Shown: piece after piece, positions 5,429 through 32,192 of the stretch | How the letters are laid out: each line of letters begins with the position of its first letter | Numbering within the stretch: position 1 is the first letter of the stretch | IMG/VR virus record: IMGVR_UViG_2851976983_000001 | Location: 32,001 to 96,000 of that record | DNA: 64,000 bases | Origin: a virus | Taxonomy: Duplodnaviria > Heunggongvirae > Uroviricota > Caudoviricetes | Reading direction: 5' to 3' (one strand) | The notes under the pieces: generated by a model | Database searches by the model: none | What the model saw: the letters and a program-made list of their open reading frames with translations, nothing else | Told to the model about the DNA's origin: nothing | Translations under genes and position numbers: made by a program

Positions 5429-5704
5429 TTCAACGCTGATGATCCTCATTTCTACAATAACGAAGACGGTGTAAGCCTGAGTGGATAGATTTGTAGGATT
5501 GTACAAGTTGAATAAATTAGCATGGTAAGGCCATGCTAATTAAATCGACACAACGGCCAGTTTATTCCATAAAAGTGAATTGCCCATTGTGGCGAAATGC
5601 GGGGTTGCCGCATGAATAGTCAAAGGCAGAAGCTAACTGCCGGCATGGCAAAACAAAGTGCGTAAGAGGAGTGACTTCCTCAACAAGCGCCATAATTCTT
5701 TATA

Positions 5705-5730
5705 AACCCGCCAACAGGCGGGTTTTCTTT
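5705..5730. terminator. bidirectional intrinsic terminator AACCCGCC-AACA-GGCGGGTT
   Basis: GC stem flanked by A-run and T-run, between convergent csp and polymerase genes. Confidence 0.6.
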
Positions 5731-5731
5731 A

Positions 5732-8700
5732 TTACTTATTTATTGTCTCCGCGATATCAGCCAGAATGGCCTCCAGTCGCTCTCCTTCTTCCGGTCGGAA
5801 GTACAGGATATTCGGGTTAAATCCGTAGAAGACGGTTGCATCAAGCTCTGGGAAGTACTCCTTACGACCAATCAGATCTGATGGTTTACTCTTATTGTTA
5901 AATAGTGCGGTTGAACGACTACCACACGTCAAAATGTAGGTTGGTCGTACAAGATTAATTTCTTCCCGCATAAAGTCTGTGAACTGGCCTATCTCGTCTT
6001 TGGTATAGTCTTTCTCTTTGTCCTTAACCTTCTTACAAACACCCGTGACATAAAGATCGCCCATGCGCAGATCTCCAACTGTCAGTAGTTTTGCCTTAAA
6101 GTCGTCGTATCCGTTCTCCATGAAGTAGCCGGTACGAGCGTCATTGCCGTTCGCATTGTCCAGAATGATCATGATTTTGGGTTTAATACCAATAGTCGGG
6201 CGTATCAACTCCTCACCCAAGCCCATTTCAGCCGCCATACGTGTCATGAGTACGTTGATTTCGGCAGAACGCTTAGGATTCATTTCGAACGGACGTGATG
6301 CTTTAACAGCGTCAATGATGAGATTGCCCATCAGTTCAGCCTGGTCGCGCAGTCGTTCAGGATCAGTTGCTGGCAGACTGCCTGGCTCAATTGACGCAAA
6401 AGCCCCTACTTTATGAAGCGACTCGCGTACACGACTGTTACATGCACGCTTCTCGACCGCTTCATCGAATTGTGCCACTGACTCGAATTTGCCACCAACT
6501 TTCTCACGCGCACGCATAATTGCCTGACAACCATTTTCAGAACAGCCTTTCACAGCAGAGAATGGCGCATACAGTGCCTGACTGCCGTCTTCGAGTGTGC
6601 GGATCTCAATTCGGTTAGATGACACATTAACGTCTGGTGGCAATACGCGAATGCCATAGGTCAGCGCATCCTTCACCAGCCCCTGATGCTTATCCTCGCC
6701 CAGAATGGTGAGCGCAGCTGCGAAGAACTCAGCAGGGTAGTGCGTCTTTAGCCACATAGACTGATAACTGATTAAAGAATAAGCAACGGAGTGTGATTTA
6801 TTGAACTGATAGGCTCCGTTTTTCTCAAATGCAGTCCATATCTCTTTTGCCTTCGTCTCAGACAGACCTGGATGTGACGTTGTAACGCGCACAACTGGCA
6901 TTGGCAGCTTCACTCCATGCTCCAACGCCTCTTCAACTGTCCTCAGAGTACCGTCCTCGCATTTAAAATGTTCTGCGCGATGAATCCGTTGTATTGCGCC
7001 ATTTTCAAGCTCTACGTCGATCCACCCAGCTTGAGCCTGAATGACAAATTTCTCACCCATGCTCCTCATCTTTTCCATGTTCTTCTTACCGATTGCTGAA
7101 CGCACACCATCCGCCTCGGCCATTGTGAAACCAGCAAGAAGCCTTGTTGCGTTCATCGTTTGTTCCTGATAGAGAATCACTCCATTTGTTTCAGAGGTCA
7201 GTTCATCCAAGACAGGATGTAGTGATGTAGGCGTCATAAATCCTTTCGCAACGGAAACATAGTCATCCAACATGCCGGATTGAATCGGTCCCGGTCGGAA
7301 GAGGGCGGTAGTTGCGACAACGGTTTTGAAACTCATTGGCTCGATGCCACCGCCCAGATCTTTAAGCAGCTTACGCATGGGGCCGGACTCCAGCTGGAAT
7401 ACGCCCTGCGTGTACCCTGCAGCGAACCCATCCAGAACCTTGCGATCGTCCAGTGGGATAGCGTCGAGATTGATGTCTTCACCGGTACTCTCTTTGATGT
7501 AGCGTTTCGCGCTATCCAGAAGATCGAGTGTTGCCAGACCGAGAACGTCCAACTTAATCAGCCCCATCGCCTCGCAGTAACGTTTATCGAACGCAATACA
7601 TCGAGCATTGCCACGCAGCTCGACGGGCGTGCGCTCTACTAATGGAACGCCAGCGACGATCATCCCCGCAGCGTGACGACCAAAACCACGCATCAGGCTT
7701 TGCAGCTTACACGCCGCTTTGAACGCTTCCGGGTTTTTCGTGGCGTATTTGTCCAGGCTGGCCAGTTGCTCGCGCAGCTCTTCCAGAGACAGGCTGTCGT
7801 CCTCCATATTCTTGAACTCTTTGGATACCGCCATATCCGCAGCATCGACACCGTAAATACGTGCAGTGTCACGCAGCGCAGATGCCGCGCCCAGATAGGT
7901 GAAGTTCGGAATGCCTGCAACGTAATCTTCGCCGTAGCGTTCATTCAGATACTCGATCACCTCATGGCGACGTGCCTGGCTGAAGTCCAAGTCCGCATCC
8001 GGCAAGTCGAGACGCTCAGGGTTGATGAAACGCTCAAACAGAAGACCGTGACGGATTGGGTCGACGTTGGTTATGCCTATGCACCACGCCACCAGAGAAC
8101 CGGCAGAGGAACCACGACCAGGCCCGACAGGAATGCCAGTTTCACGGCTGTGATTCATCAGATCGCGTACCATCAGGAAGTAACCACAGAATCCCAGGCG
8201 AGTCAGCGTGTCCATTTCGTACTTTAGCCGCTCAACATAAACCCTGTTCTCAGAAGCAGGTGGTGTGTATCCAAACTCTTTTGTGGTAAGACGTTTACGC
8301 AGCCCTGCAACAGCCAGTTTCATCAGCGTTGCAGGTTCGTCGTCTGCCATCTTGGGCAGTGCTGGTGGCAATTCATGCCAGCGCCATGTGCAGGCATCGA
8401 TAATGGAGTCCTGCGTTGTTGAGGCCATTGCAGCTGTTACCGGCACATCCATGCGAACGGAGAAGGCTTTAAGCGCCTCAAGGAGATGGCGACGACCATT
8501 GATGGCGTTATCTCGCTGGTGGGGGATACGCAGACGATGCGGCTGGTCGATTTTTATGTTGTTCGTAACCATGTGCGCAATGTCTTTAATGTCTGCATCG
8601 TCGATCGATTCGTAATAAGCGGGATAGAACGCCACTGGCTCTATTTTCAATGCGCTGGCGACTTTCATCGCCCGGACGTTAATCTGGTCGTAGAATGGGG

Positions 8701-9250
8701 TAGGGTGCGGATAAACCACACTATAGAAGTTGTCTTTTCCACCCGCTGTAATCAGTGTGCTTATGATTTTTGCAAAATCGTTGCGTTGGAACACGCTACC
8801 GATGTCGGAAGTAAGCAGGATGATGTTACCTTTGGCATATGTAGAAACCAACTGTTCGAGCGAGAGACGCGGTACAAAGTAGAACTGTTCTCGTGTGTTG
8901 GCCGCCGTCATTAGTTCGCAGATGTCGCGATATCCTTTCTCATTTTTAATTAGAGCGGTAAACGAGTAGTTACGTCCTCGCTCCAATGATTCCATACATC
9001 CCTTAGACTCTTTAGCAAGTTTAGCCCGGTGCTCGTATGTGGGATCATCAACGATGTTTAGTTTCACACCACAAATAACCGCCATGTCGTCACCAGCGGC
9101 ACGTTGTAGTGGAATAACGCTCGCAATATTCATGCTATCTGCTGAAATTACAGCGGTGTAGCCAGCTTCTCTGGCAATCTTCACCGCGTTTTCTGCTTTT
9201 AAAGCCGACTCCCCAAGTGAGAAGTCAGTTCGAACCATCAGTGCCTTCAT
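5732..9250 (-). CDS. DNA polymerase III alpha-type (DnaE-like, PHP domain) replicative polymerase
   Basis: 1172 aa; motifs GPGRGSSAGSLVAW, LLFERFINPER, FQLESGPM, ALFRPGP, ILYQEQ, FNKSHSVAYSLISYQSMWLKTHYPAEF align with E. coli DnaE core motifs. Confidence 0.85.
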   Translation of the reverse strand: MKALMVRTDFSLGESALKAENAVKIAREAGYTAVISADSMNIASVIPLQRAAGDDMAVICGVKLNIVDDPTYEHRAKLAKESKGCMESLERGRNYSFTALIKNEKGYRDICELMTAANTREQFYFVPRLSLEQLVSTYAKGNIILLTSDIGSVFQRNDFAKIISTLITAGGKDNFYSVVYPHPTPFYDQINVRAMKVASALKIEPVAFYPAYYESIDDADIKDIAHMVTNNIKIDQPHRLRIPHQRDNAINGRRHLLEALKAFSVRMDVPVTAAMASTTQDSIIDACTWRWHELPPALPKMADDEPATLMKLAVAGLRKRLTTKEFGYTPPASENRVYVERLKYEMDTLTRLGFCGYFLMVRDLMNHSRETGIPVGPGRGSSAGSLVAWCIGITNVDPIRHGLLFERFINPERLDLPDADLDFSQARRHEVIEYLNERYGEDYVAGIPNFTYLGAASALRDTARIYGVDAADMAVSKEFKNMEDDSLSLEELREQLASLDKYATKNPEAFKAACKLQSLMRGFGRHAAGMIVAGVPLVERTPVELRGNARCIAFDKRYCEAMGLIKLDVLGLATLDLLDSAKRYIKESTGEDINLDAIPLDDRKVLDGFAAGYTQGVFQLESGPMRKLLKDLGGGIEPMSFKTVVATTALFRPGPIQSGMLDDYVSVAKGFMTPTSLHPVLDELTSETNGVILYQEQTMNATRLLAGFTMAEADGVRSAIGKKNMEKMRSMGEKFVIQAQAGWIDVELENGAIQRIHRAEHFKCEDGTLRTVEEALEHGVKLPMPVVRVTTSHPGLSETKAKEIWTAFEKNGAYQFNKSHSVAYSLISYQSMWLKTHYPAEFFAAALTILGEDKHQGLVKDALTYGIRVLPPDVNVSSNRIEIRTLEDGSQALYAPFSAVKGCSENGCQAIMRAREKVGGKFESVAQFDEAVEKRACNSRVRESLHKVGAFASIEPGSLPATDPERLRDQAELMGNLIIDAVKASRPFEMNPKRSAEINVLMTRMAAEMGLGEELIRPTIGIKPKIMIILDNANGNDARTGYFMENGYDDFKAKLLTVGDLRMGDLYVTGVCKKVKDKEKDYTKDEIGQFTDFMREEINLVRPTYILTCGSRSTALFNNKSKPSDLIGRKEYFPELDATVFYGFNPNILYFRPEEGERLEAILADIAETINK

Positions 9251-9434
9251 GTGTTTTTACCTTTCTGGTTTTTTTGATTTTGTCATTTGGGAAGCCTACG
9301 AACTTCCCATGCATCGAAATCGCAACTTCTTTTGCTGATTGGTGACAATCGGGCTTGTCTGGACACACCAGACAAGCCTTACCAGTTTCAGAAGCAGCGA
9401 TAAGAGAGCCGAAACATCCTTTACGCACGATCAA
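9225..9434 (-). CDS. small Cys-rich hypothetical protein (69 aa)
   Basis: ORF track; bridges the CobS-like and polymerase genes with overlaps; CxxC-like pairs. Confidence 0.3.
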   Translation of the reverse strand: MIVRKGCFGSLIAASETGKACLVCPDKPDCHQSAKEVAISMHGKFVGFPNDKIKKTRKVKTHEGTDGSN

Positions 9435-10666
9435 CCAAATATTTTTTGAACAACTTCACGAGCCGCTTGTGCAGAAGCTGAAGGGAGTTTGTTAATGAAA
9501 GAACGCTCAATACCTGTCACAAAGTCGCCTCGCATCATTCCAATCTTGGCCGACAACAAAAGTTCACGAGGGCCAATTGGCTGACTGATAAGGTGTTCTT
9601 CGTATCCATCGCGAACGATACCGGCAAACTTAACCATCTTTTCTGCGTATTCATCCACGATACCGGCATTTATCAACATGTTGATCTCTGCCTCTTTGCT
9701 CATGTATTTCACATTCGAAACGATGCCAAAACGCGAAAAGTTCGCGGCGTTCTGGATGTTTGTACCCTGGTACAAGCCGGTTTCATCACCAGATCCGTTC
9801 GTGTTGCCAGTGCCAATGAAAGCAAACCGTTCATGCGGAGTAATGCGACGCCATTCTGGAGTCGCCTCTTTGATGACTAACGCTTCACCTTCCAGCACTG
9901 GCTGATACACGCCAAGAATTTGTGGAAACGCAAAGTCGTATTCATCCGCGAGGTAAACCCAGCCATGCTTCATTGCGAGCGCAAGCAAGCCAGGCTCGAA
10001 ATACGTAGAGCCATCACGCGCCAGAATTTGCCCCGTAACATGTGCCTCTTCCATTGATGCTGTATGTTGGGCACGGATCAACGGACGATTGAGCAAAGCA
10101 CATAGTTGTGTAGGCAATGACGATTTGCCTGTTCCTGCATGACCCCACAAATAGCCAGGTATGCCAAGTTCAAGCATCATGAAAATGTCTTTGATCAGTT
10201 CGAAGTCGCCATATACGTATCCCTTCTTCACTTCTGGAACGAACTCTGGAAACGGCGTATTGACGTTGACGCTAACCATGAGCGGCGTCCCACGTTTTGT
10301 TCCGAGTTCTTTCACCGTTACATTTAGCAGTTCGTGAGCTGCGACCAGATCTGTCTTGTACTCAACTGTGCCTGTGTAGCCTGGGCTACTGGTCACGCCA
10401 GATGATTTGGCCATTTCGCTTTTTTGCTCGGCACGTTTAGCTTGAATTGCATCAAGTGCCTTTTTCGATAGCGTTGGCTCATCTGGAAACTGTGTTGTGT
10501 ACATTTTCAGTACGGTGTCAGGATCGGCATCTTTTACTGACTCAGGAATGCCCTCGCAATTACCATTGGCTACATGGGACTTAAAATAGTGAAATGATTT
10601 TCCGCACCACTTGCAAACAAGGTAATCAGAAGGATTTTTTTCATTTTGCAGTGCAGTAGTAGTCAT
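9431..10666 (-). CDS. AAA+ ATPase, MoxR/CobS-like
   Basis: 411 aa; Walker A GHAGTGKSS; N-terminal Cys/His cluster; paired with downstream vWA protein. Confidence 0.75.
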   Translation of the reverse strand: MTTTALQNEKNPSDYLVCKWCGKSFHYFKSHVANGNCEGIPESVKDADPDTVLKMYTTQFPDEPTLSKKALDAIQAKRAEQKSEMAKSSGVTSSPGYTGTVEYKTDLVAAHELLNVTVKELGTKRGTPLMVSVNVNTPFPEFVPEVKKGYVYGDFELIKDIFMMLELGIPGYLWGHAGTGKSSLPTQLCALLNRPLIRAQHTASMEEAHVTGQILARDGSTYFEPGLLALAMKHGWVYLADEYDFAFPQILGVYQPVLEGEALVIKEATPEWRRITPHERFAFIGTGNTNGSGDETGLYQGTNIQNAANFSRFGIVSNVKYMSKEAEINMLINAGIVDEYAEKMVKFAGIVRDGYEEHLISQPIGPRELLLSAKIGMMRGDFVTGIERSFINKLPSASAQAAREVVQKIFG

Positions 10667-10761
10667 GCGTTTTTCCTTTGTTTTCTAATGAGCGTTCAAC
10701 TTCTTATATAAATATATCATTATCTATCGTAAGTGGTTACTTATCGTTAAGGCTGTTTTGT

Positions 10762-12870
10762 TCACTTTAAAATGATACGAGATAGTTCAGTAACTACAGA
10801 TGAACCAAGACTATCAACGCTCGTTACCAGGGCATGTTTTGAGTAAAATCTCTCCGGTGCGTCAGTCATGATGCCAATTGCCATCAAATCAATGTCAGTC
10901 TGCGTTTCAATTTGCTTCGCAACCGAACGCAAATGAGCGTCAAAACCTCTCCCAACAGCCCACGGCGCGCCATCACTCAGAACAAGCATGATCTTCCTGT
11001 CCTCCATGCGACCGGAAAATAACGATGCAAGGCTGGCTATGCTTTCACCATCCACGTTATTAAGAAGTGGGAATGTGTAGCCTACGCACCCCATACGTGA
11101 GCGAACTTCGCGAGAATTTACCTTTTCATTCCAATTTTTGATGATAGGTAGCATTAAAGATTCAAAGCGAGAGAACTCATACTTGACAGCCTTAAGTTCT
11201 CCTGCCGCCATATGACTACCAAATGTAGTGAAGCCGGTGATAATGTTGGGAACATTTATTCGATCAAGGGCATCGGCGATGGTATATGCACTTGCAAGAG
11301 CCAATTGTATCGTTATACCACTCATTGAACCTGATAAATCAATCACTTGTTGAACACAGGCGTTAACGGCTTTAGATTCTTCTTTTTTACGAAACACGCG
11401 ATCATCATTCATTGCTAATCTGTAGATACTAGAACCATGAATGCGCCCCCGACGCTGGCCCGGTATAAACTGAACTCTGTTTCTGCTTGCTATTGCTCGC
11501 TCCAGGTCTTTTGCCAGCGTCGACGAAACACCTGACGAAAGATGCTTTTCAATATATTTGTCGAAGAGCTGGTTGCCTTCAGGAACGATGCGATAGCGGC
11601 TGATTGGATATCCTCCTAAATCAATATCGGAGAATGTTTTAATAAGCCGTTTGATATGGGCTTCTGCCTGATCAATCGAGCCGATGAAGTCGTATGAGCG
11701 ATTGTATGGCCTGTATTCGCTTTTCGAGCTTTCTGTTAACTCGCTTTTAATCGTTTCGGATAGAGCATCTTCTGTCATGCCTCCGACTTCATCTTCTATG
11801 CTATCCAGCTCCTCTAAAGCCTCTTCCAGACTCATTTTTGACGGAGTTGGGATATCTGAAGAGCCGTCTTCTGTCGTTTTTCTTTTTTCGTGGTCAGCGG
11901 TTAATGATTCTGACGCCGCGTTATCAGAAGCATCAGAATCTGATACCTCTTTATCATTTTCTGTATCATCGAATATTGTTTCTGATGATTCAGAATTATC
12001 TGAATCATCACTGTCATTATTATCATGTTTGTACTTACTGTGTGACTCTGGTTTGATAGATTTGTGATTATCTAGCGATGAGGGTGTCTCATGATCTTCG
12101 TCGTCTTCATTGTTTTCTCCAGAGGCATCCGTCTGGTCAGCGTCTGAAGGATCGGAAGTTTTTCCCGGAGCTGACTCCTTACCTTTGCTTTCACTTTCAG
12201 TGTCTTTGAGGATCTTAGCTATGGTCGCAGCCACCTTTACACAATCCTCGGTGCAAGACATGTTACGCACGGCCACATCGATACCATGTTCTTTTAATAA
12301 TGAAATTGGTTTCTCAATGACAGGCCAGTATTCATCCATGAAATCTACGAACGGTGCTTGGCCATCCCAGGCTCTTACAACCGGACAGAGAAAGAAGTTT
12401 AGAAAAAGCGCGCGCTGATCTTTGCCACAATAAGCAATAGCCTCTGAAGCCTTTGGTTTAAAGACTTTTTCGATTATAAGGCGTTGAGTTGCCATCAGAT
12501 TACGTCTTGTTCCGTTAAAGACCTGCCCCATTTTTCGCTCGATGAACACGTCTTCTAAGGCATTCCATAGCGACCAGGAAGGAACGCGTCCTTTTTCTCT
12601 CATTTTGTTGGACACACGAATATCGGTAAACAAAATGTGAGCAACCTCATGATCGAGAAATCCGCGCACAGCATTCATCAATGCCGGTGTTGCGTTATCC
12701 GGGATTGATGGGATGTTTACGAGAATTGGCTCTCCATCATCGTTATAGCGTACATAAGCGTCGTCTCCTCGTTCTGCAACAGGGATGTTTTTACCTGAAA
12801 GGAGAGCGACTACTCGTTTTACACTGTCACGGAAGTCCTGAACCTCTTTGATGGAACGTTTTTTAGACAT
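10762..12870 (-). CDS. von Willebrand factor A domain protein (CobT-like) with long acidic linker
   Basis: 702 aa; MIDAS-type motif VIDLSGSMSG in the C-terminal part; about 120 aa Asp/Ser/Glu-rich linker. Confidence 0.75.
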   Translation of the reverse strand: MSKKRSIKEVQDFRDSVKRVVALLSGKNIPVAERGDDAYVRYNDDGEPILVNIPSIPDNATPALMNAVRGFLDHEVAHILFTDIRVSNKMREKGRVPSWSLWNALEDVFIERKMGQVFNGTRRNLMATQRLIIEKVFKPKASEAIAYCGKDQRALFLNFFLCPVVRAWDGQAPFVDFMDEYWPVIEKPISLLKEHGIDVAVRNMSCTEDCVKVAATIAKILKDTESESKGKESAPGKTSDPSDADQTDASGENNEDDEDHETPSSLDNHKSIKPESHSKYKHDNNDSDDSDNSESSETIFDDTENDKEVSDSDASDNAASESLTADHEKRKTTEDGSSDIPTPSKMSLEEALEELDSIEDEVGGMTEDALSETIKSELTESSKSEYRPYNRSYDFIGSIDQAEAHIKRLIKTFSDIDLGGYPISRYRIVPEGNQLFDKYIEKHLSSGVSSTLAKDLERAIASRNRVQFIPGQRRGRIHGSSIYRLAMNDDRVFRKKEESKAVNACVQQVIDLSGSMSGITIQLALASAYTIADALDRINVPNIITGFTTFGSHMAAGELKAVKYEFSRFESLMLPIIKNWNEKVNSREVRSRMGCVGYTFPLLNNVDGESIASLASLFSGRMEDRKIMLVLSDGAPWAVGRGFDAHLRSVAKQIETQTDIDLMAIGIMTDAPERFYSKHALVTSVDSLGSSVVTELSRIILK

Positions 12871-12968
12871 GGCTAATCCTTTGTTATGAAAACAAATTAT
12901 TTACTAGTGTGTTTAATGTAGCACTGCGCGAACAGGGAACTAAGCCATTCGCGCAGGGAGAAGAGGGG

Positions 12969-13181
12969 TTAACAGATTCTGACGGCTAAAGACCCGGAGC
13001 CGGTATTGAGAAGCGTGAAGCGTTTGTTGTTAAGTTCGAATATAAAGCCAGTTGTGTCATTCACACCAACCTGAATCTGCTCATTCGGTAGATCGGTGAG
13101 GATGTCAGCTACACACTCATCAGCTAATTTCTGTACGTGTCCGATCTCAAGAGCGATTAGGCTGGAAATAGTGGTGTTCAT
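12969..13181 (-). CDS. hypothetical small protein (70 aa)
   Basis: ORF track only. Confidence 0.3.
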   Translation of the reverse strand: MNTTISSLIALEIGHVQKLADECVADILTDLPNEQIQVGVNDTTGFIFELNNKRFTLLNTGSGSLAVRIC

Positions 13182-13358
13182 TCAATCAATCCATTCTAAC
13201 TTATACTATGGTAAGGAATACTACTAAAATTTGTATCAATACTGAATACATTCATATCATATGCAAGTTAATTTTCTTACCTATTTTGGGCTAATTTTTC
13301 TCCGTGCAATGGCCTTTAACCGGTCTTTTAAGTGCCTATCGAAAATAATGATAATAGC

Positions 13359-13386
13359 TTTACAACCCTAACCTTTGATGTAATAT
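13359..13386 (+). promoter_or_regulatory. candidate sigma70 promoter TTTACA-16-TAATAT, followed by palindrome GGTAAG-CA-CTTACC (13393-13406)
   Basis: Read directly, upstream of the HTH gene. Confidence 0.4.
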
Positions 13387-13432
13387 CGGTAAGCACTTAC
13401 CAGAGAGAATTGAACGCGCAAAGGTTGTAACC

Positions 13433-13819
13433 ATGTCTGATAACAAGATTGAATTTATAGAAAGTCGCTACGCTGCTTTTATCGCAGGGTTGATTGAATC
13501 CTCACCTATGAGCCAGGCCCAGATAGCCAAAACAATTGGGTATAAAAACGCCAACAACCTTTCTTTAATTAAAAGTGGCAAAATTCCTTTGCCTATCGAT
13601 AAGGTTCGTCCGCTGGCGCTGGCGCTGGGTATTGAGCCTAGTCGTCTTATGATGATGGTGCTGGAAGAACGCCAACCTGAACTCGCAGCATTTTTGTACA
13701 AAGAAGGCACCGCTCCTCTTAACGAGGACGAAAAACAGGTTCTTGCTGCATATAACGAGCGATTCGGTAAAGAGAAAGGCGCATCACAAAAGGTTGTTGA
13801 GGCCATAAAGTCTCTATGA
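13433..13819 (+). CDS. XRE-family helix-turn-helix regulator
   Basis: 128 aa; MSQAQIAKTIGYKNANNLSLIKSGK HTH pattern; convergent with recombinase gene and overlapping its 3' end. Confidence 0.7.
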   Translation: MSDNKIEFIESRYAAFIAGLIESSPMSQAQIAKTIGYKNANNLSLIKSGKIPLPIDKVRPLALALGIEPSRLMMMVLEERQPELAAFLYKEGTAPLNEDEKQVLAAYNERFGKEKGASQKVVEAIKSL

Positions 13820-14917
13820 AAAATTTACACGAATAAGCTCTGTTGATAGACGATCTCCCTTGAATTTGTGGTCAATTTCGTCTAAATCCGGTTGATCTAC
13901 GATTGATGCGATGTACGTCGAGAAACTTTCTAAGGCGTCTCGCATCTCGTCCATATAATCGTGCCGGTCGTAGACCCGATCTATCCCCTCAAGACTGTGG
14001 TTCATGATTTTGCGTGATACCTCCTGGCTTATGCCTAATGCTGGGAAGTAACTACGCGCAGTACGGCGCAAATCTCGGGGTGTAAATGGCTCAAGCTCCA
14101 TCAGTTCTGGTCGTTCCAGAATACGACGTAATGCCTGGGCTATTGCCACTTTAGACATAGGAAGGTCTTTCCCGATTTTTTTATTCGAAGGCACGAGCCA
14201 CTGGCTGTCTTTACCGTATTCGAACAACTCTTCAATGCATGTGCGCATTAATGTGCTTAAAGGCAGCGAATGCTCACGTGCTGACTTGTTTCTCTTGCCT
14301 TGATTCCAAACTCCACGCTTAAGATTGAACTCACTTTTTTTAGCCCGCAGTACTTCGTCAGGTCGTCTTGCTGATACAAGACACAGTCTGGCCGCCCATT
14401 TTGTACCAGCGCACACATTGAAGTAGTCCCATATATTCCAGAACACCCATACCTCTGCGTCGGTCAGCTTCCGCTCGCGAGGTGTGGGCTTTGCGCCACC
14501 GGCAACTTTGTTTAGTGACATATCGTTTAGCGGTGACACGTCTATCATCCCCTGGAAGGCGCACCAGCTAAGGAACTGCTTCATCAGAGAGAAAACGCGG
14601 CGGCCCATAACAATTTTGCCATCCAATATTAGAGGGTTGACCAGTTGGTTCACCATGAACCTATTAATGTCACTTACTTTTACATCAGCAATGTGCGGCA
14701 AAACATGTATCAAAATACAATGAACAGCGATCTCTGGCCGACGTCTGGTTATCAGCAGAGATAAGCGAGTGAATAACATGAATGCGTCCGAGAATCTCAT
14801 ATCATTGCTAACCTGCGAGATCATAACGGCCTGCATTTGAGATGCTCTTTCGAGATACTCAATCGCCTCTTTTGAGGTGTTCTCCGCAGCGCGTGCTCTG
14901 TCAAAGCTATTTTTCAT
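13814..14917 (-). CDS. tyrosine site-specific recombinase (integrase/resolvase family)
   Basis: 367 aa; C-terminal catalytic pattern DLRRTARSY ... MNHSLEGIDRVYDRHDY (R, H-x-x-R, Y). Confidence 0.8.
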   Translation of the reverse strand: MKNSFDRARAAENTSKEAIEYLERASQMQAVMISQVSNDMRFSDAFMLFTRLSLLITRRRPEIAVHCILIHVLPHIADVKVSDINRFMVNQLVNPLILDGKIVMGRRVFSLMKQFLSWCAFQGMIDVSPLNDMSLNKVAGGAKPTPRERKLTDAEVWVFWNIWDYFNVCAGTKWAARLCLVSARRPDEVLRAKKSEFNLKRGVWNQGKRNKSAREHSLPLSTLMRTCIEELFEYGKDSQWLVPSNKKIGKDLPMSKVAIAQALRRILERPELMELEPFTPRDLRRTARSYFPALGISQEVSRKIMNHSLEGIDRVYDRHDYMDEMRDALESFSTYIASIVDQPDLDEIDHKFKGDRLSTELIRVNFS

Positions 14918-15968: not shown

Positions 15969-16757
15969 TTACTGATAGGCTTCCAGTGCGACTTTGCATA
16001 GCTCAGAACGCACGCAATCTTCGGTCGCAAACTCAATAAGGCCAACATGGGAGGAAGGTTTAAATCGCTCCAGTGCATCTTCCAGACCAGACTTAACATT
16101 GCTTGGCAGGTCGCATTGCGTCACATCTCCGTTCACAATGACGGTTACGTTCTCGCCCATACGGGTCAGGAATATTTTCATTTGTGACGCTGTAACGTTT
16201 TGCGCCTCATCGAGAATGACTACAGCGTTCTCGAACGTGCGCCCACGCATGTAAGCGAATGGGGCAATCTCTACTTTGGCCACCTCTGGCTTTAAGCAAT
16301 ATTCAAGGAACGAGCCACCCAAACGCTTCTGTAACACGTCATAGACGGGACGGAAGAACGGAGCGAACTTCTCGCTCATGTCGCCCGGAAGGAAGCCCAG
16401 ATCTTCTTCTGCTTGCAATACTGGACGCGTCACGATGATCTTCCCGACTTCCTTATCCAGCAGACGCTGCGCTGCGACGGCAGCTGCCAGGTAGGTCTTG
16501 CCGCAACCGGCTTCACCAGTGGCGAACGTCAGAGGTTTGGTATCGAGGGATATAAGATAGTGGGCCTGGGCCTCGTTACGTGCTTCGATGGGAGAGTTGT
16601 CACGTTTAGGTTTTGGTGGCAGAGCAGGGGCGGCAGCCAGCTCGTCAACGATGATTGTGTCAATTTCGTAGCCGTGGATGCGTGGTTTTGACTTCAGCGC
16701 CTGACGAGCTGCGCGACGCGCCTGTTTACGTTTGTTTCCCATATTGAGTCCTTTCAA
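15969..16757 (-). CDS. PhoH-like ATPase
   Basis: 262 aa; Walker A GEAGCGKTY and Walker B VVILDEAQN. Confidence 0.85.
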   Translation of the reverse strand: MKGLNMGNKRKQARRAARQALKSKPRIHGYEIDTIIVDELAAAPALPPKPKRDNSPIEARNEAQAHYLISLDTKPLTFATGEAGCGKTYLAAAVAAQRLLDKEVGKIIVTRPVLQAEEDLGFLPGDMSEKFAPFFRPVYDVLQKRLGGSFLEYCLKPEVAKVEIAPFAYMRGRTFENAVVILDEAQNVTASQMKIFLTRMGENVTVIVNGDVTQCDLPSNVKSGLEDALERFKPSSHVGLIEFATEDCVRSELCKVALEAYQ

Positions 16758-31824: not shown

Positions 31825-32192
31825 TTTGTAGCAGAATCATCAGCCTTAACCGTGCTGACAATGCTACCATGATTGCGTAAGAAGCGGCGAATAGAATGTT
31901 CAATAACCTCCGAAAAAGCCTCGATAAAACGAGACAGCTCAGGGTACTGTTTAGCTGGCTTGACTACAAAACGAACACGACCATTCAGGTAAATTGCTTC
32001 AGCTAATGGCTTCACGCTTGCACCAGCGCGCTCAACATCGTCTTTGAAGGTAACGATGAAGCGTGAGTCTTCCGGTTCAATAGCGTCATTATTGAGCTTA
32101 CGTACTTCAAGCTTGTGCTGATTCAGCACATGAGTCTCGATAATACTCGTGCAATCGCGAATAGTTTGTATAGAACGTTTCTCGTTCAGCAT
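31809..32192 (-). CDS. hypothetical protein (127 aa)
   Basis: ORF track. Confidence 0.45.
   Translation of the reverse strand: MLNEKRSIQTIRDCTSIIETHVLNQHKLEVRKLNNDAIEPEDSRFIVTFKDDVERAGASVKPLAEAIYLNGRVRFVVKPAKQYPELSRFIEAFSEVIEHSIRRFLRNHGSIVSTVKADDSATKWLLH

Follow-up and report, generated by a model that had tools for sequence, protein, structure and literature searches.

Here we describe an adjacent gene pair, encoding a CobS-like AAA+ ATPase and a CobT-like adaptor with a vWA domain and its MIDAS (metal-ion-dependent adhesion site), in a 64,000-nucleotide (nt) stretch of viral DNA (positions 32,001 to 96,000 of IMG/VR record IMGVR_UViG_2851976983_000001; hereafter the window). This region is 97.6-99.2% identical to the Escherichia phages Cyrano, CMS-2020a and PhiR41_1 (Cyrano ~99%), and Salmonella phage SSU5 matches it with 74.5% nucleotide identity over the aligned 60%; judged by these comparisons, the element is an SSU5-like phage-plasmid of E. 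coli. An earlier note on this DNA had pointed out the AAA+ ATPase and the 702-amino-acid (aa) vWA/MIDAS protein at 9431-12870, and we find that both open reading frames (ORFs) are exact and that their domain matches lie far beyond chance. Absent from that note were the strand and gene order, a tight linkage to dnaE, and a conserved HExxH motif in the adaptor's N-terminal domain. The conservation of this motif in viral adaptors, set against its absence from the bacterial CobT proteins examined, is our main new observation. Such genes are widespread: marine T4-like cyanophages have cobS among their core genes, cobST pairs are scattered over tailed phages and archaeal viruses, and viral ecology routinely counts these pairs as vitamin B12 auxiliary metabolic genes.

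Table 1. Positions of the gene pair, its domains and motifs, and the adjoining features in the window
Feature	Position	Strand	Remarks
cobT-like adaptor gene	10762..12870	-	702 aa; N-domain, acidic linker, shaft-like segment, vWA/MIDAS; from ORF
N-terminal domain	12196..12870	-	residues 1-225; alpha1, three-stranded sheet, helical bundle
HEVAH (HExxH) motif	12637..12651	-	residues 74-78; downstream E106, D107, E111 conserved
Acidic Asp/Glu/Ser-rich disordered linker	11836..12207	-	residues ~222-345; from composition and predicted local distance difference test (pLDDT)
Helical region ahead of vWA	11362..11835	-	residues 346-503; includes shaft-like segment
vWA domain with MIDAS	10765..11361	-	CobT_C 2e-82; DLSGS (residues 511-515) at 11326-11340
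cobS-like AAA+ ATPase gene	9431..10666	-	411 aa; ~140-aa N-terminal extension and AAA+ core; from ORF, Pfam, PHROG, PDB
C-x2-C-x4-H-x4-H zinc-knuckle-like motif	10574..10615	-	CobS N-terminal extension; C18, C21, H26, H31
Walker A GHAGTGKS	10121..10144	-	residues 175-182; equivalent to Brucella CobS G71-S78
Small Cys-rich ORF (orf69)	9225..9434	-	67-69 aa, between cobS and dnaE; PHROG 6337, 2e-45
dnaE (DNA polymerase III alpha)	5732..9250	-	1172 aa; Pfam DNA_pol3_alpha, finger, HHH_6, PHP
GC-rich palindromic hairpin	5704..5725		directly after dnaE; 9-bp stem, 6 GC pairs
70-aa ORF (orf70)	12969..13181	-	directly upstream of cobT; PHROG 2627
Helix-turn-helix (HTH) repressor-like gene	13433..13819	+	divergent; HTH_19; Cyrano 'putative repressor' CYRAN_45

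Architecture of the ATPase and its adaptor

The ATPase matches Pfam AAA_5 (2e-15), PHROG 249 over nearly its full length (2e-106, residues 11-410) and, in the PDB, CobS (9ujv; 1.8e-25, residues 141-411). Scored against solved structures it reaches 92.8 bits with CobS, 28.8 with CbbQ and 20.6 with NorQ; the choice between CobS and MoxR/CbbQ that the earlier note had raised thus falls to CobS, and the partner carries the Pfam domains CobT (4e-27) and CobT_C (2e-82). Alignment to Brucella CobS places Walker B at D241-E242, sensor-1 at N288, the arginine finger at R312 and sensor-2 at R367, and in an alignment of six sequences the AAA+ motifs do not vary. The Walker A motif, the N-terminal Cys/His cluster and the DLSGS sequence of the MIDAS, all named in the earlier note, are present. 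Because every AAA+ catalytic residue is retained, the CobS-like subunits should form an ATP-hydrolysing hexameric ring. The Cys/His cluster of the N-terminal extension (CCHH motif) is kept in SSU5, Pseudomonas phage phiK7B1 and the metagenomic relatives L090, L091 and L094, is degenerate in the Rhizobium phage, and is absent from ICP2, cyanophage and bacterial CobS among the sequences compared. Longer CobS-like ATPases occur in roseophage CRP-810 and in Gordonia phages (617 and 519 aa; L085 1827-3680 and L086 3209-4768), where big unrelated N-terminal regions are found and the ATPase gene precedes that of the CobT-like protein, whose HExxH persists.

The 702-aa adaptor matches PHROG 1576 over nearly its full length (6e-302, residues 5-702) and the CobT entries 9uka_G and 21vt in the PDB. 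Its family is large, with 5,049 clusters at 50% identity at E <1e-3 and 513 at E <1e-30; the conservation counts for the adaptor given below refer to 101 diverse relatives of ~30-60% identity. An AlphaFold (AF2) model built on 101 relatives has a mean pLDDT of 84.6, with values <50 for residues 242-327 only. In a profile alignment to 9uka_G, the segment ~462-504 (GQRRGRIHG...RVFRKKEE) aligns with the Brucella CobT shaft Q373-R413; here G471, G475 and F493 are invariant or nearly so, and position 482 is Leu in 98/101 relatives and Ile in the window. Each of the MIDAS positions D511, S513, S515, N605 and D633 is conserved in 101/101, and the best Foldseek matches of the vWA domain are the NorD vWA (E 7e-9) and the MIDAS domain of MDN1/Rea1 (E 4e-8).

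The acidic low-complexity region of about 120 aa that the earlier note had described is likewise there. Residues 225-345 (121 aa) consist of 31% Asp/Glu and 27% Ser/Thr, with a net charge of -25, and the linkers of the relatives are 142 aa long at the median (57-273), with 40% Asp/Glu and a net charge of -42. The linker of genuine bacterial CobT (116 aa, 34-37% Asp/Glu) is equally acidic, and the ~90-residue linker of Brucella CobT is disordered in cryo-electron microscopy maps of the complex (bioRxiv 10.64898/2026.07.21.739949). On this comparison of composition, the acidic linker is an inherited flexible tether. The suggestion that it might act as a nucleic-acid mimic is rejected: the trait is family-wide, and because the real enzyme has it too, the linker gives no evidence for DNA mimicry. 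The same data bear on a counter-defence or conflict function, in which the linker would mimic nucleic acid or the pair would sense or neutralise host immunity. MoxR-vWA pairs do occur in some conflict systems in the literature, and the linker is long and strongly negative. However, PADLOC gave no credible match, its sole one being DrmE (E 0.0014, residues 340-533, which include the linker's acidic C-terminal end), and on this result the conflict-system idea mentioned in the earlier note is not supported. The linker moreover varies freely in length and sequence, is ancestral and serves equally in a metabolic enzyme as a disordered tether, and the genes sit within a conserved replication module rather than in a variable accessory island. 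We regard a function of this kind as very improbable.

An HExxH motif in the adaptor N-domain

In the model, the HExxH motif of the adaptor N-domain falls within helix 62-81, while E106, D107 and E111 lie on helix 97-117, after a short helix at 84-92; E106 and E111 are the candidates for a third zinc ligand. Conservation at these positions is almost complete: H74 and E75 are each kept in 100 of the relatives, H78 in 99, E106 in 100, D107 in 99 and E111 in 101, and an HExxH is found near position 70 in 141/146 full-length representatives. Among phages it occurs in six lineages, namely the SSU5-like phages, a Rhizobium phage, the ICP2-like JSF27, cyanophage P-SSM4, roseophage CRP-810 and a Gordonia phage. 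In contrast, none of the four bacterial CobT proteins examined has it (Sinorhizobium, Cereibacter, Pandoraea and Sphingomonas); they read D-[S/A]-x-A-L-[R/Q] at this position. Where viral adaptors have, rarely, lost the motif, two or all three of its residues are missing together (for example DKEVAN, DQQVAR and SEISK), which is the pattern expected for the decay of a real catalytic site.

On an M48-like fold, HExxH followed by a Glu further along the chain is the arrangement classically seen in catalytic zincins. As for the fold itself, a Foldseek search of the N-domain model against the PDB returned no significant match, a single-sequence PDB search with the N-domain returned noise only (HLA, SOD), and Pfam Peptidase_M48 gave one weak match among 31 N-domains, so that sequence does not establish membership of M48. 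The N-terminal domain of Brucella CobT (CobT_N) was likened by its authors to a peptidase M48C domain (bioRxiv 10.64898/2026.07.21.739949). Based on this statement and on the conservation pattern of HExxH, the simplest reading would be that the N-domain has a zincin fold which in viruses is capable of catalysis and in the chelatase is a pseudo-peptidase, with the fold evidence being only suggestive. The 'peptidase' label of the cyanophage cobS partner has been called a mistake (Liu et al. 2021). Our finding that the motif is conserved suggests that the peptidase-like site is real, and the label may reflect a real feature.

Relation to the cobaltochelatase

The locus is a member of the viral cobST cluster (PHROG 249 with PHROG 1576), having the same adjacent pair and no structural difference; to judge by these matches, it belongs to an already catalogued cluster and is not a generic MoxR system. 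This cluster has been described with the proposal that it hijacks host CobN to boost B12 (Liu et al. 2021), whereas other authors state that the function of cobST is uncertain. The point of the earlier note that phage genes bear CobS/CobT labels without evidence for cobalt chelation is borne out by the records, which annotate the pair as a B12 or porphyrin gene: in SSU5 the genes SSU5_049/050 are annotated 'porphyrin biosynthesis'. In Cyrano, the AAA+ protein is labelled 'cobalamin synthetase' and the vWA protein 'dimethylbenzimidazole phosphoribosyltransferase' (CYRAN_47/48; L001 12229-15668, corresponding to window 9431-12870). These product labels are an annotation error that arose through a gene-name collision with the unrelated CobS/CobT of Salmonella nomenclature, and the CRP-810 paper has the same name confusion.

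The best PDB sequence matches of the phage pair are CobS and CobT of the aerobic (class I) cobaltochelatase CobNST (EC 6.6.1.2) from Brucella melitensis (9ujv/9uka). In the Brucella complex, CobS forms a hexameric ring and CobT consists of CobT_N, a linker and CobT_C; in CobT_C the vWA/MIDAS follows the shaft Q373-R413, which enters the ring pore when nucleotide is bound, and CobN docks with CobT_N on one side and the MIDAS face of CobT_C on the other (bioRxiv 10.64898/2026.07.21.739949). The phage pair shares with CobNST an AAA+ motor with Walker A/B, sensor-1, arginine finger and sensor-2, and an adaptor laid out as putative M48-like N-domain, acidic disordered linker, shaft-like segment and vWA/MIDAS. 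Since the phage protein appears to have all the parts of CobT, the motor-adaptor mechanism can, with reasonable confidence, be transferred by homology from the Brucella complex to the phage pair.

The two systems also differ. The phage N-domain keeps HExxH and real CobT does not, and the shaft segment is basic in the phage but acidic/hydrophobic in CobNST. Phage CobS has ~100 aa of extra N-terminal region with the CCHH motif and lacks the C-terminal tail, stopping ~13-16 residues short of the bacterial C-terminus. Because of this shorter tail it is without the hydrophobic patch A322-V326 of helix alpha10, which in Brucella CobS contacts CobT_N (bioRxiv 10.64898/2026.07.21.739949). The adaptor gene comes first in our locus, SSU5, and the Pseudomonas, Rhizobium, ICP2-like and cyanophage loci; the ATPase gene comes first in 4/4 annotated bacterial loci and also in CRP-810 and the Gordonia phages. 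The context is DNA replication in the phage, whereas genes for BolA and a J-domain protein lie beside bacterial cobS-cobT. These genuine cobS-cobT genes stand next to BolA-family and J-domain genes, outside any cob operon, in the three alphaproteobacteria Sinorhizobium, Cereibacter and Sphingomonas (L007 1554-5626, L008 920-5605 and L088 1786-6560). The NCBIfam equivalog models give 84.8 bits for CobS (TIGR01650; cut-off 558.55) and 66.2 bits for CobT (TIGR01651; cut-off 759.05), both far below threshold. By these scores the two proteins are relatives of the cobaltochelatase subunits, not orthologues.

Neither the element nor its host appears equipped for cobalt chelation. The large ORFs of the window are tail proteins and none of them is a CobN, and in the full Cyrano annotation (126 features) neither CobN nor any corrin gene or B12-dependent enzyme is listed. 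Cyrano's ribonucleotide reductase carries the annotations of an alpha and a beta subunit, and we take it to be of class I, which does not depend on B12. For cobalt chelation, E. coli depended on cobN, cobS and cobT brought in from other bacteria (Fang et al. 2018), and from this need we infer that the E. coli host, whose own genome was not searched, has neither CobN nor the corrin substrate. Given the lack of CobN, the low equivalog scores, the reversed gene order and the missing CobS patch, the pair is unlikely to insert cobalt in this element.

These results bear directly on the auxiliary metabolic gene model, in which viral CobS/CobT would replace or supplement the host motor and drive host CobN to make more cobalamin. 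The model has a published mechanism (Liu et al. 2021), and the homology to CobS/CobT is clear, with the motor, shaft-like and MIDAS elements all retained. Nevertheless, E. coli is without CobN or the aerobic corrin pathway, the element is without CobN or an annotated B12-dependent enzyme (in the window and in the Cyrano annotation), the equivalog scores are far under their cut-offs, phage CobS lacks the patch that contacts CobT_N, and the conserved HExxH, absent from real CobT, has no role in the model. Salmonella, furthermore, relies on the anaerobic route, whose chelatase is a different one, and Vibrio cholerae, in which the cobST-bearing ICP2 phages grow, is not known to synthesise B12 de novo. 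We therefore consider the model quite unlikely here. With the pair present in hosts without CobN and inside replication operons, and with a putative protease-type zinc site retained, the B12 label itself is doubtful.

Linkage to dnaE and a proposed mechanism

The earlier note had the ATPase followed by the vWA protein, which is correct in window coordinates; both genes lie on the minus strand, however, and in transcription the vWA gene comes first, cobT (12870→10762) being followed by cobS (10666→9431). The spacer between them is 95 nt long, AT-rich and contains a ribosome-binding site. The start of orf69 overlaps the cobS stop codon or lies 2 nt past it, and the last 26 nt of orf69 overlap the start of dnaE. 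On the minus strand from cobT to the end of dnaE, we found no terminator-like site except one within dnaE (6419-6402), and the hairpin directly after dnaE likely marks the end of the transcription unit. Its first gene is probably orf70, which stands upstream of cobT in 67/75 related loci. An AT-rich 250-bp region separates this unit from the divergent repressor-like gene, which adjoins it in 74/75 loci.

The 75 loci come from a scan of viral contigs with the family alignment, which returned close SSU5-like relatives only. Within this set the order CobT>CobS>orf69>DnaE holds in 65/65 loci with enough downstream sequence; orf69 occupies the same slot in 72/75, and the remaining 3 show neither orf69 nor DnaE. 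The order persists at 30-37% identity, in Pseudomonas phage phiK7B1, Rhizobium phage RHph_N1_10 and metagenomic contigs, and the usual distant arrangement is helicase - primase - ligase - HTH - CobT - CobS - sigma70-like - DnaE - gp32 - exonuclease. In the unrelated T4-like cyanophage P-SSM4 the pair lies between gp46/47 and the gp45 clamp with the gp44/62 loader, and in the ICP2-like JSF27 it lies upstream of helicase and polymerase. Around the pair in our window are genes for a DnaB-like helicase, primase, ligase, PhoH, glutaredoxin, integrase, the HTH repressor-like protein, DNA polymerase III alpha, a gp32-like single-stranded DNA-binding protein and a 5'-3' exonuclease. In the LF82 lysogen, CYRAN_47 and CYRAN_48 are not among the listed expressed genes, while the adjacent repressor is listed; this pattern fits a lytic or early role rather than that of a lysogenic-conversion gene.

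Based on these findings, we propose that the pair is a CobN-independent AAA+/MIDAS remodelling machine, possibly proteolytic, that acts in the early or replication programme, and we give this reading a probability of about 0.5. By homology, the CobS-like hexamer would hydrolyse ATP and grip the shaft of the CobT-like adaptor. A protein client may then bind between the MIDAS face and the N-domain, where CobN sits in the enzyme, and ATP-driven pulling on the shaft could be coupled to cleavage or metal-dependent processing of this client, which is conceivable because the N-domain keeps an intact HExxH and conserved Glu, a putative zinc site. Most likely, the pair acts in an early or replication phase, for example to remodel, mature or remove a replication-related or host protein; this phase is suggested because the pair lies upstream of dnaE and beside the repressor gene and is not listed as expressed in the lysogen. 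In our literature searches, no paper was found that links viral CobST to replication or proteolysis.

Two groups of known machines recall parts of this scheme. The MoxR-class systems NorQ/NorD, CbbQ/CbbO, RavA/ViaA and Rea1 (MDN1) share the hexameric AAA_5-type motor and a MIDAS adaptor that links it to the client, and the phage pair has their defining arrangement, an AAA_5-type ATPase beside a vWA protein with a complete MIDAS; the similarity of the phage ATPase to CbbQ/NorQ is, however, much weaker than to CobS, and we know of no HExxH domain on the NorD, CbbO, ViaA or Rea1 adaptors. FtsH, with its AAA+ and M41 zincin domains, and the M48 peptidases Ste24 and HtpX offer the likeness of an ATP-driven ring with an HExxH zincin site. 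In the phage, by contrast, motor and zincin are on separate proteins, and the ring of the solved Brucella homologue grips the adaptor's own shaft, not the substrate.

That the pair works by proteolysis specifically is a tentative claim, possible in our view but doubtful. Equally speculative is its evolutionary extension: viral CobT proteins might be MIDAS-targeted zinc proteases, driven by the CobS ring and used for early replication or host takeover, and the CobT of the cobaltochelatase might be a derived pseudo-protease that lost its site on specialising for CobN. If viral CobT proteins were indeed zinc proteases, the 'B12 auxiliary metabolic gene' label of the cyanomyovirus core gene cobS would be wrong. 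The E. coli phage-plasmid represented by Cyrano and SSU5 is a tractable system for testing the role of viral cobS/cobT.

Several observations weigh against the remodelling machine as we propose it. Some family members, including phiK7B1, lost the HExxH motif and keep both the pair and its dnaE linkage, so catalysis would not be essential to the module's role in these members. CRP-810, the Gordonia phages and one bacterial contig have the pair without recognisable replication neighbours, and the dnaE synteny may largely reflect one inherited replication module, not independent selection. Many hosts of cobST phages, such as Rhizobium and cyanobacteria, have CobN, and chelatase hijacking is possible there.

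The main rival to our proposal holds that the pair is a metal-centre chaperone without proteolytic activity, comparable to NorQ/NorD, CoxD/CoxE or CbbQ/CbbO. It would use ATP to open a phage or host metalloenzyme and insert or exchange its metal, with HExxH holding the metal for delivery instead of cutting peptide bonds; chelatase hijacking and counter-defence are less likely in this host. MoxR-class pairs of known function remodel or metallate enzymes, the vWA domain of the adaptor is most like that of NorD, and the element encodes metal-dependent candidates in a ribonucleotide reductase beta subunit and a polymerase III epsilon-like exonuclease. A pair in bacteria also suggests other metal-centre clients: on the Pandoraea oxalativorans plasmid pPO70-1 (L087 3167-6611), cobS/cobT-like genes lie directly downstream of ureG in a urease cluster, and from this neighbour one may suspect that some bacterial 'CobST' pairs act on a different metal centre. 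On the other hand, the adjacent DnaE is an unlikely metal client, its PHP domain lacking two metal-binding histidines; the SSU5-like phages, ICP2 and the cyanophages share no metal client in their annotations; and we know of no metal-donor role for an HExxH and Glu site on an M48-like fold. We judge such a chaperone unlikely. DnaE as a general metal client was also considered and rejected, its PHP being without His-x-His and the pair-bearing cyanophages being without DnaE.

Further observations concern the genes around the unit. The PHP domain of the phage DnaE is degenerate, its N-terminus reading MKALMVRTDFS without the His-x-His metal ligands. The DnaE proteins of relatives L090 and L094 have a C-terminal UDG domain, and in L094 the dnaE gene is interrupted by one for an HNH homing endonuclease. 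In Rhizobium-phage-like and metagenomic relatives, a sigma-70-like factor takes the place of orf69 between cobS and dnaE (L004 9209-9844, L090 4238-4909, L091 6991-7614 and L094 10397-11044). A match to Xanthomonas phage JGB6, in which fragmented ORFs are annotated as polymerase III alpha, was left uninterpreted; this record looks frameshifted. Upstream of orf70 and cobT, a repeat search for operators yielded only weak, unconvincing repeats. Between orf70 and cobT (window 12903-12968) the 9-bp arms CTGCGCGAA / TTCGCGCAG form a perfect inverted repeat around a 15-nt loop; as no T-run follows, this may be a hairpin for regulation or processing instead of a terminator.

The repressor-like gene abuts a tyrosine integrase gene (window 13182-14917), and their arrangement with the divergent unit is kept in 72/75 loci; the published SSU5 genome has a tRNA-Asn in place of the repressor-integrase arrangement. 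PhoH and MazG co-occur with cobS in SSU5-like elements (window 15969-16757; Cyrano CYRAN_71). The window also has a single tRNA gene, tRNA-Asn (GTT), at 19794-19868 on the minus strand. The Cyrano record has three tRNAs (Ser, Thr and Asn) in the matching region, where the window differs from Cyrano.

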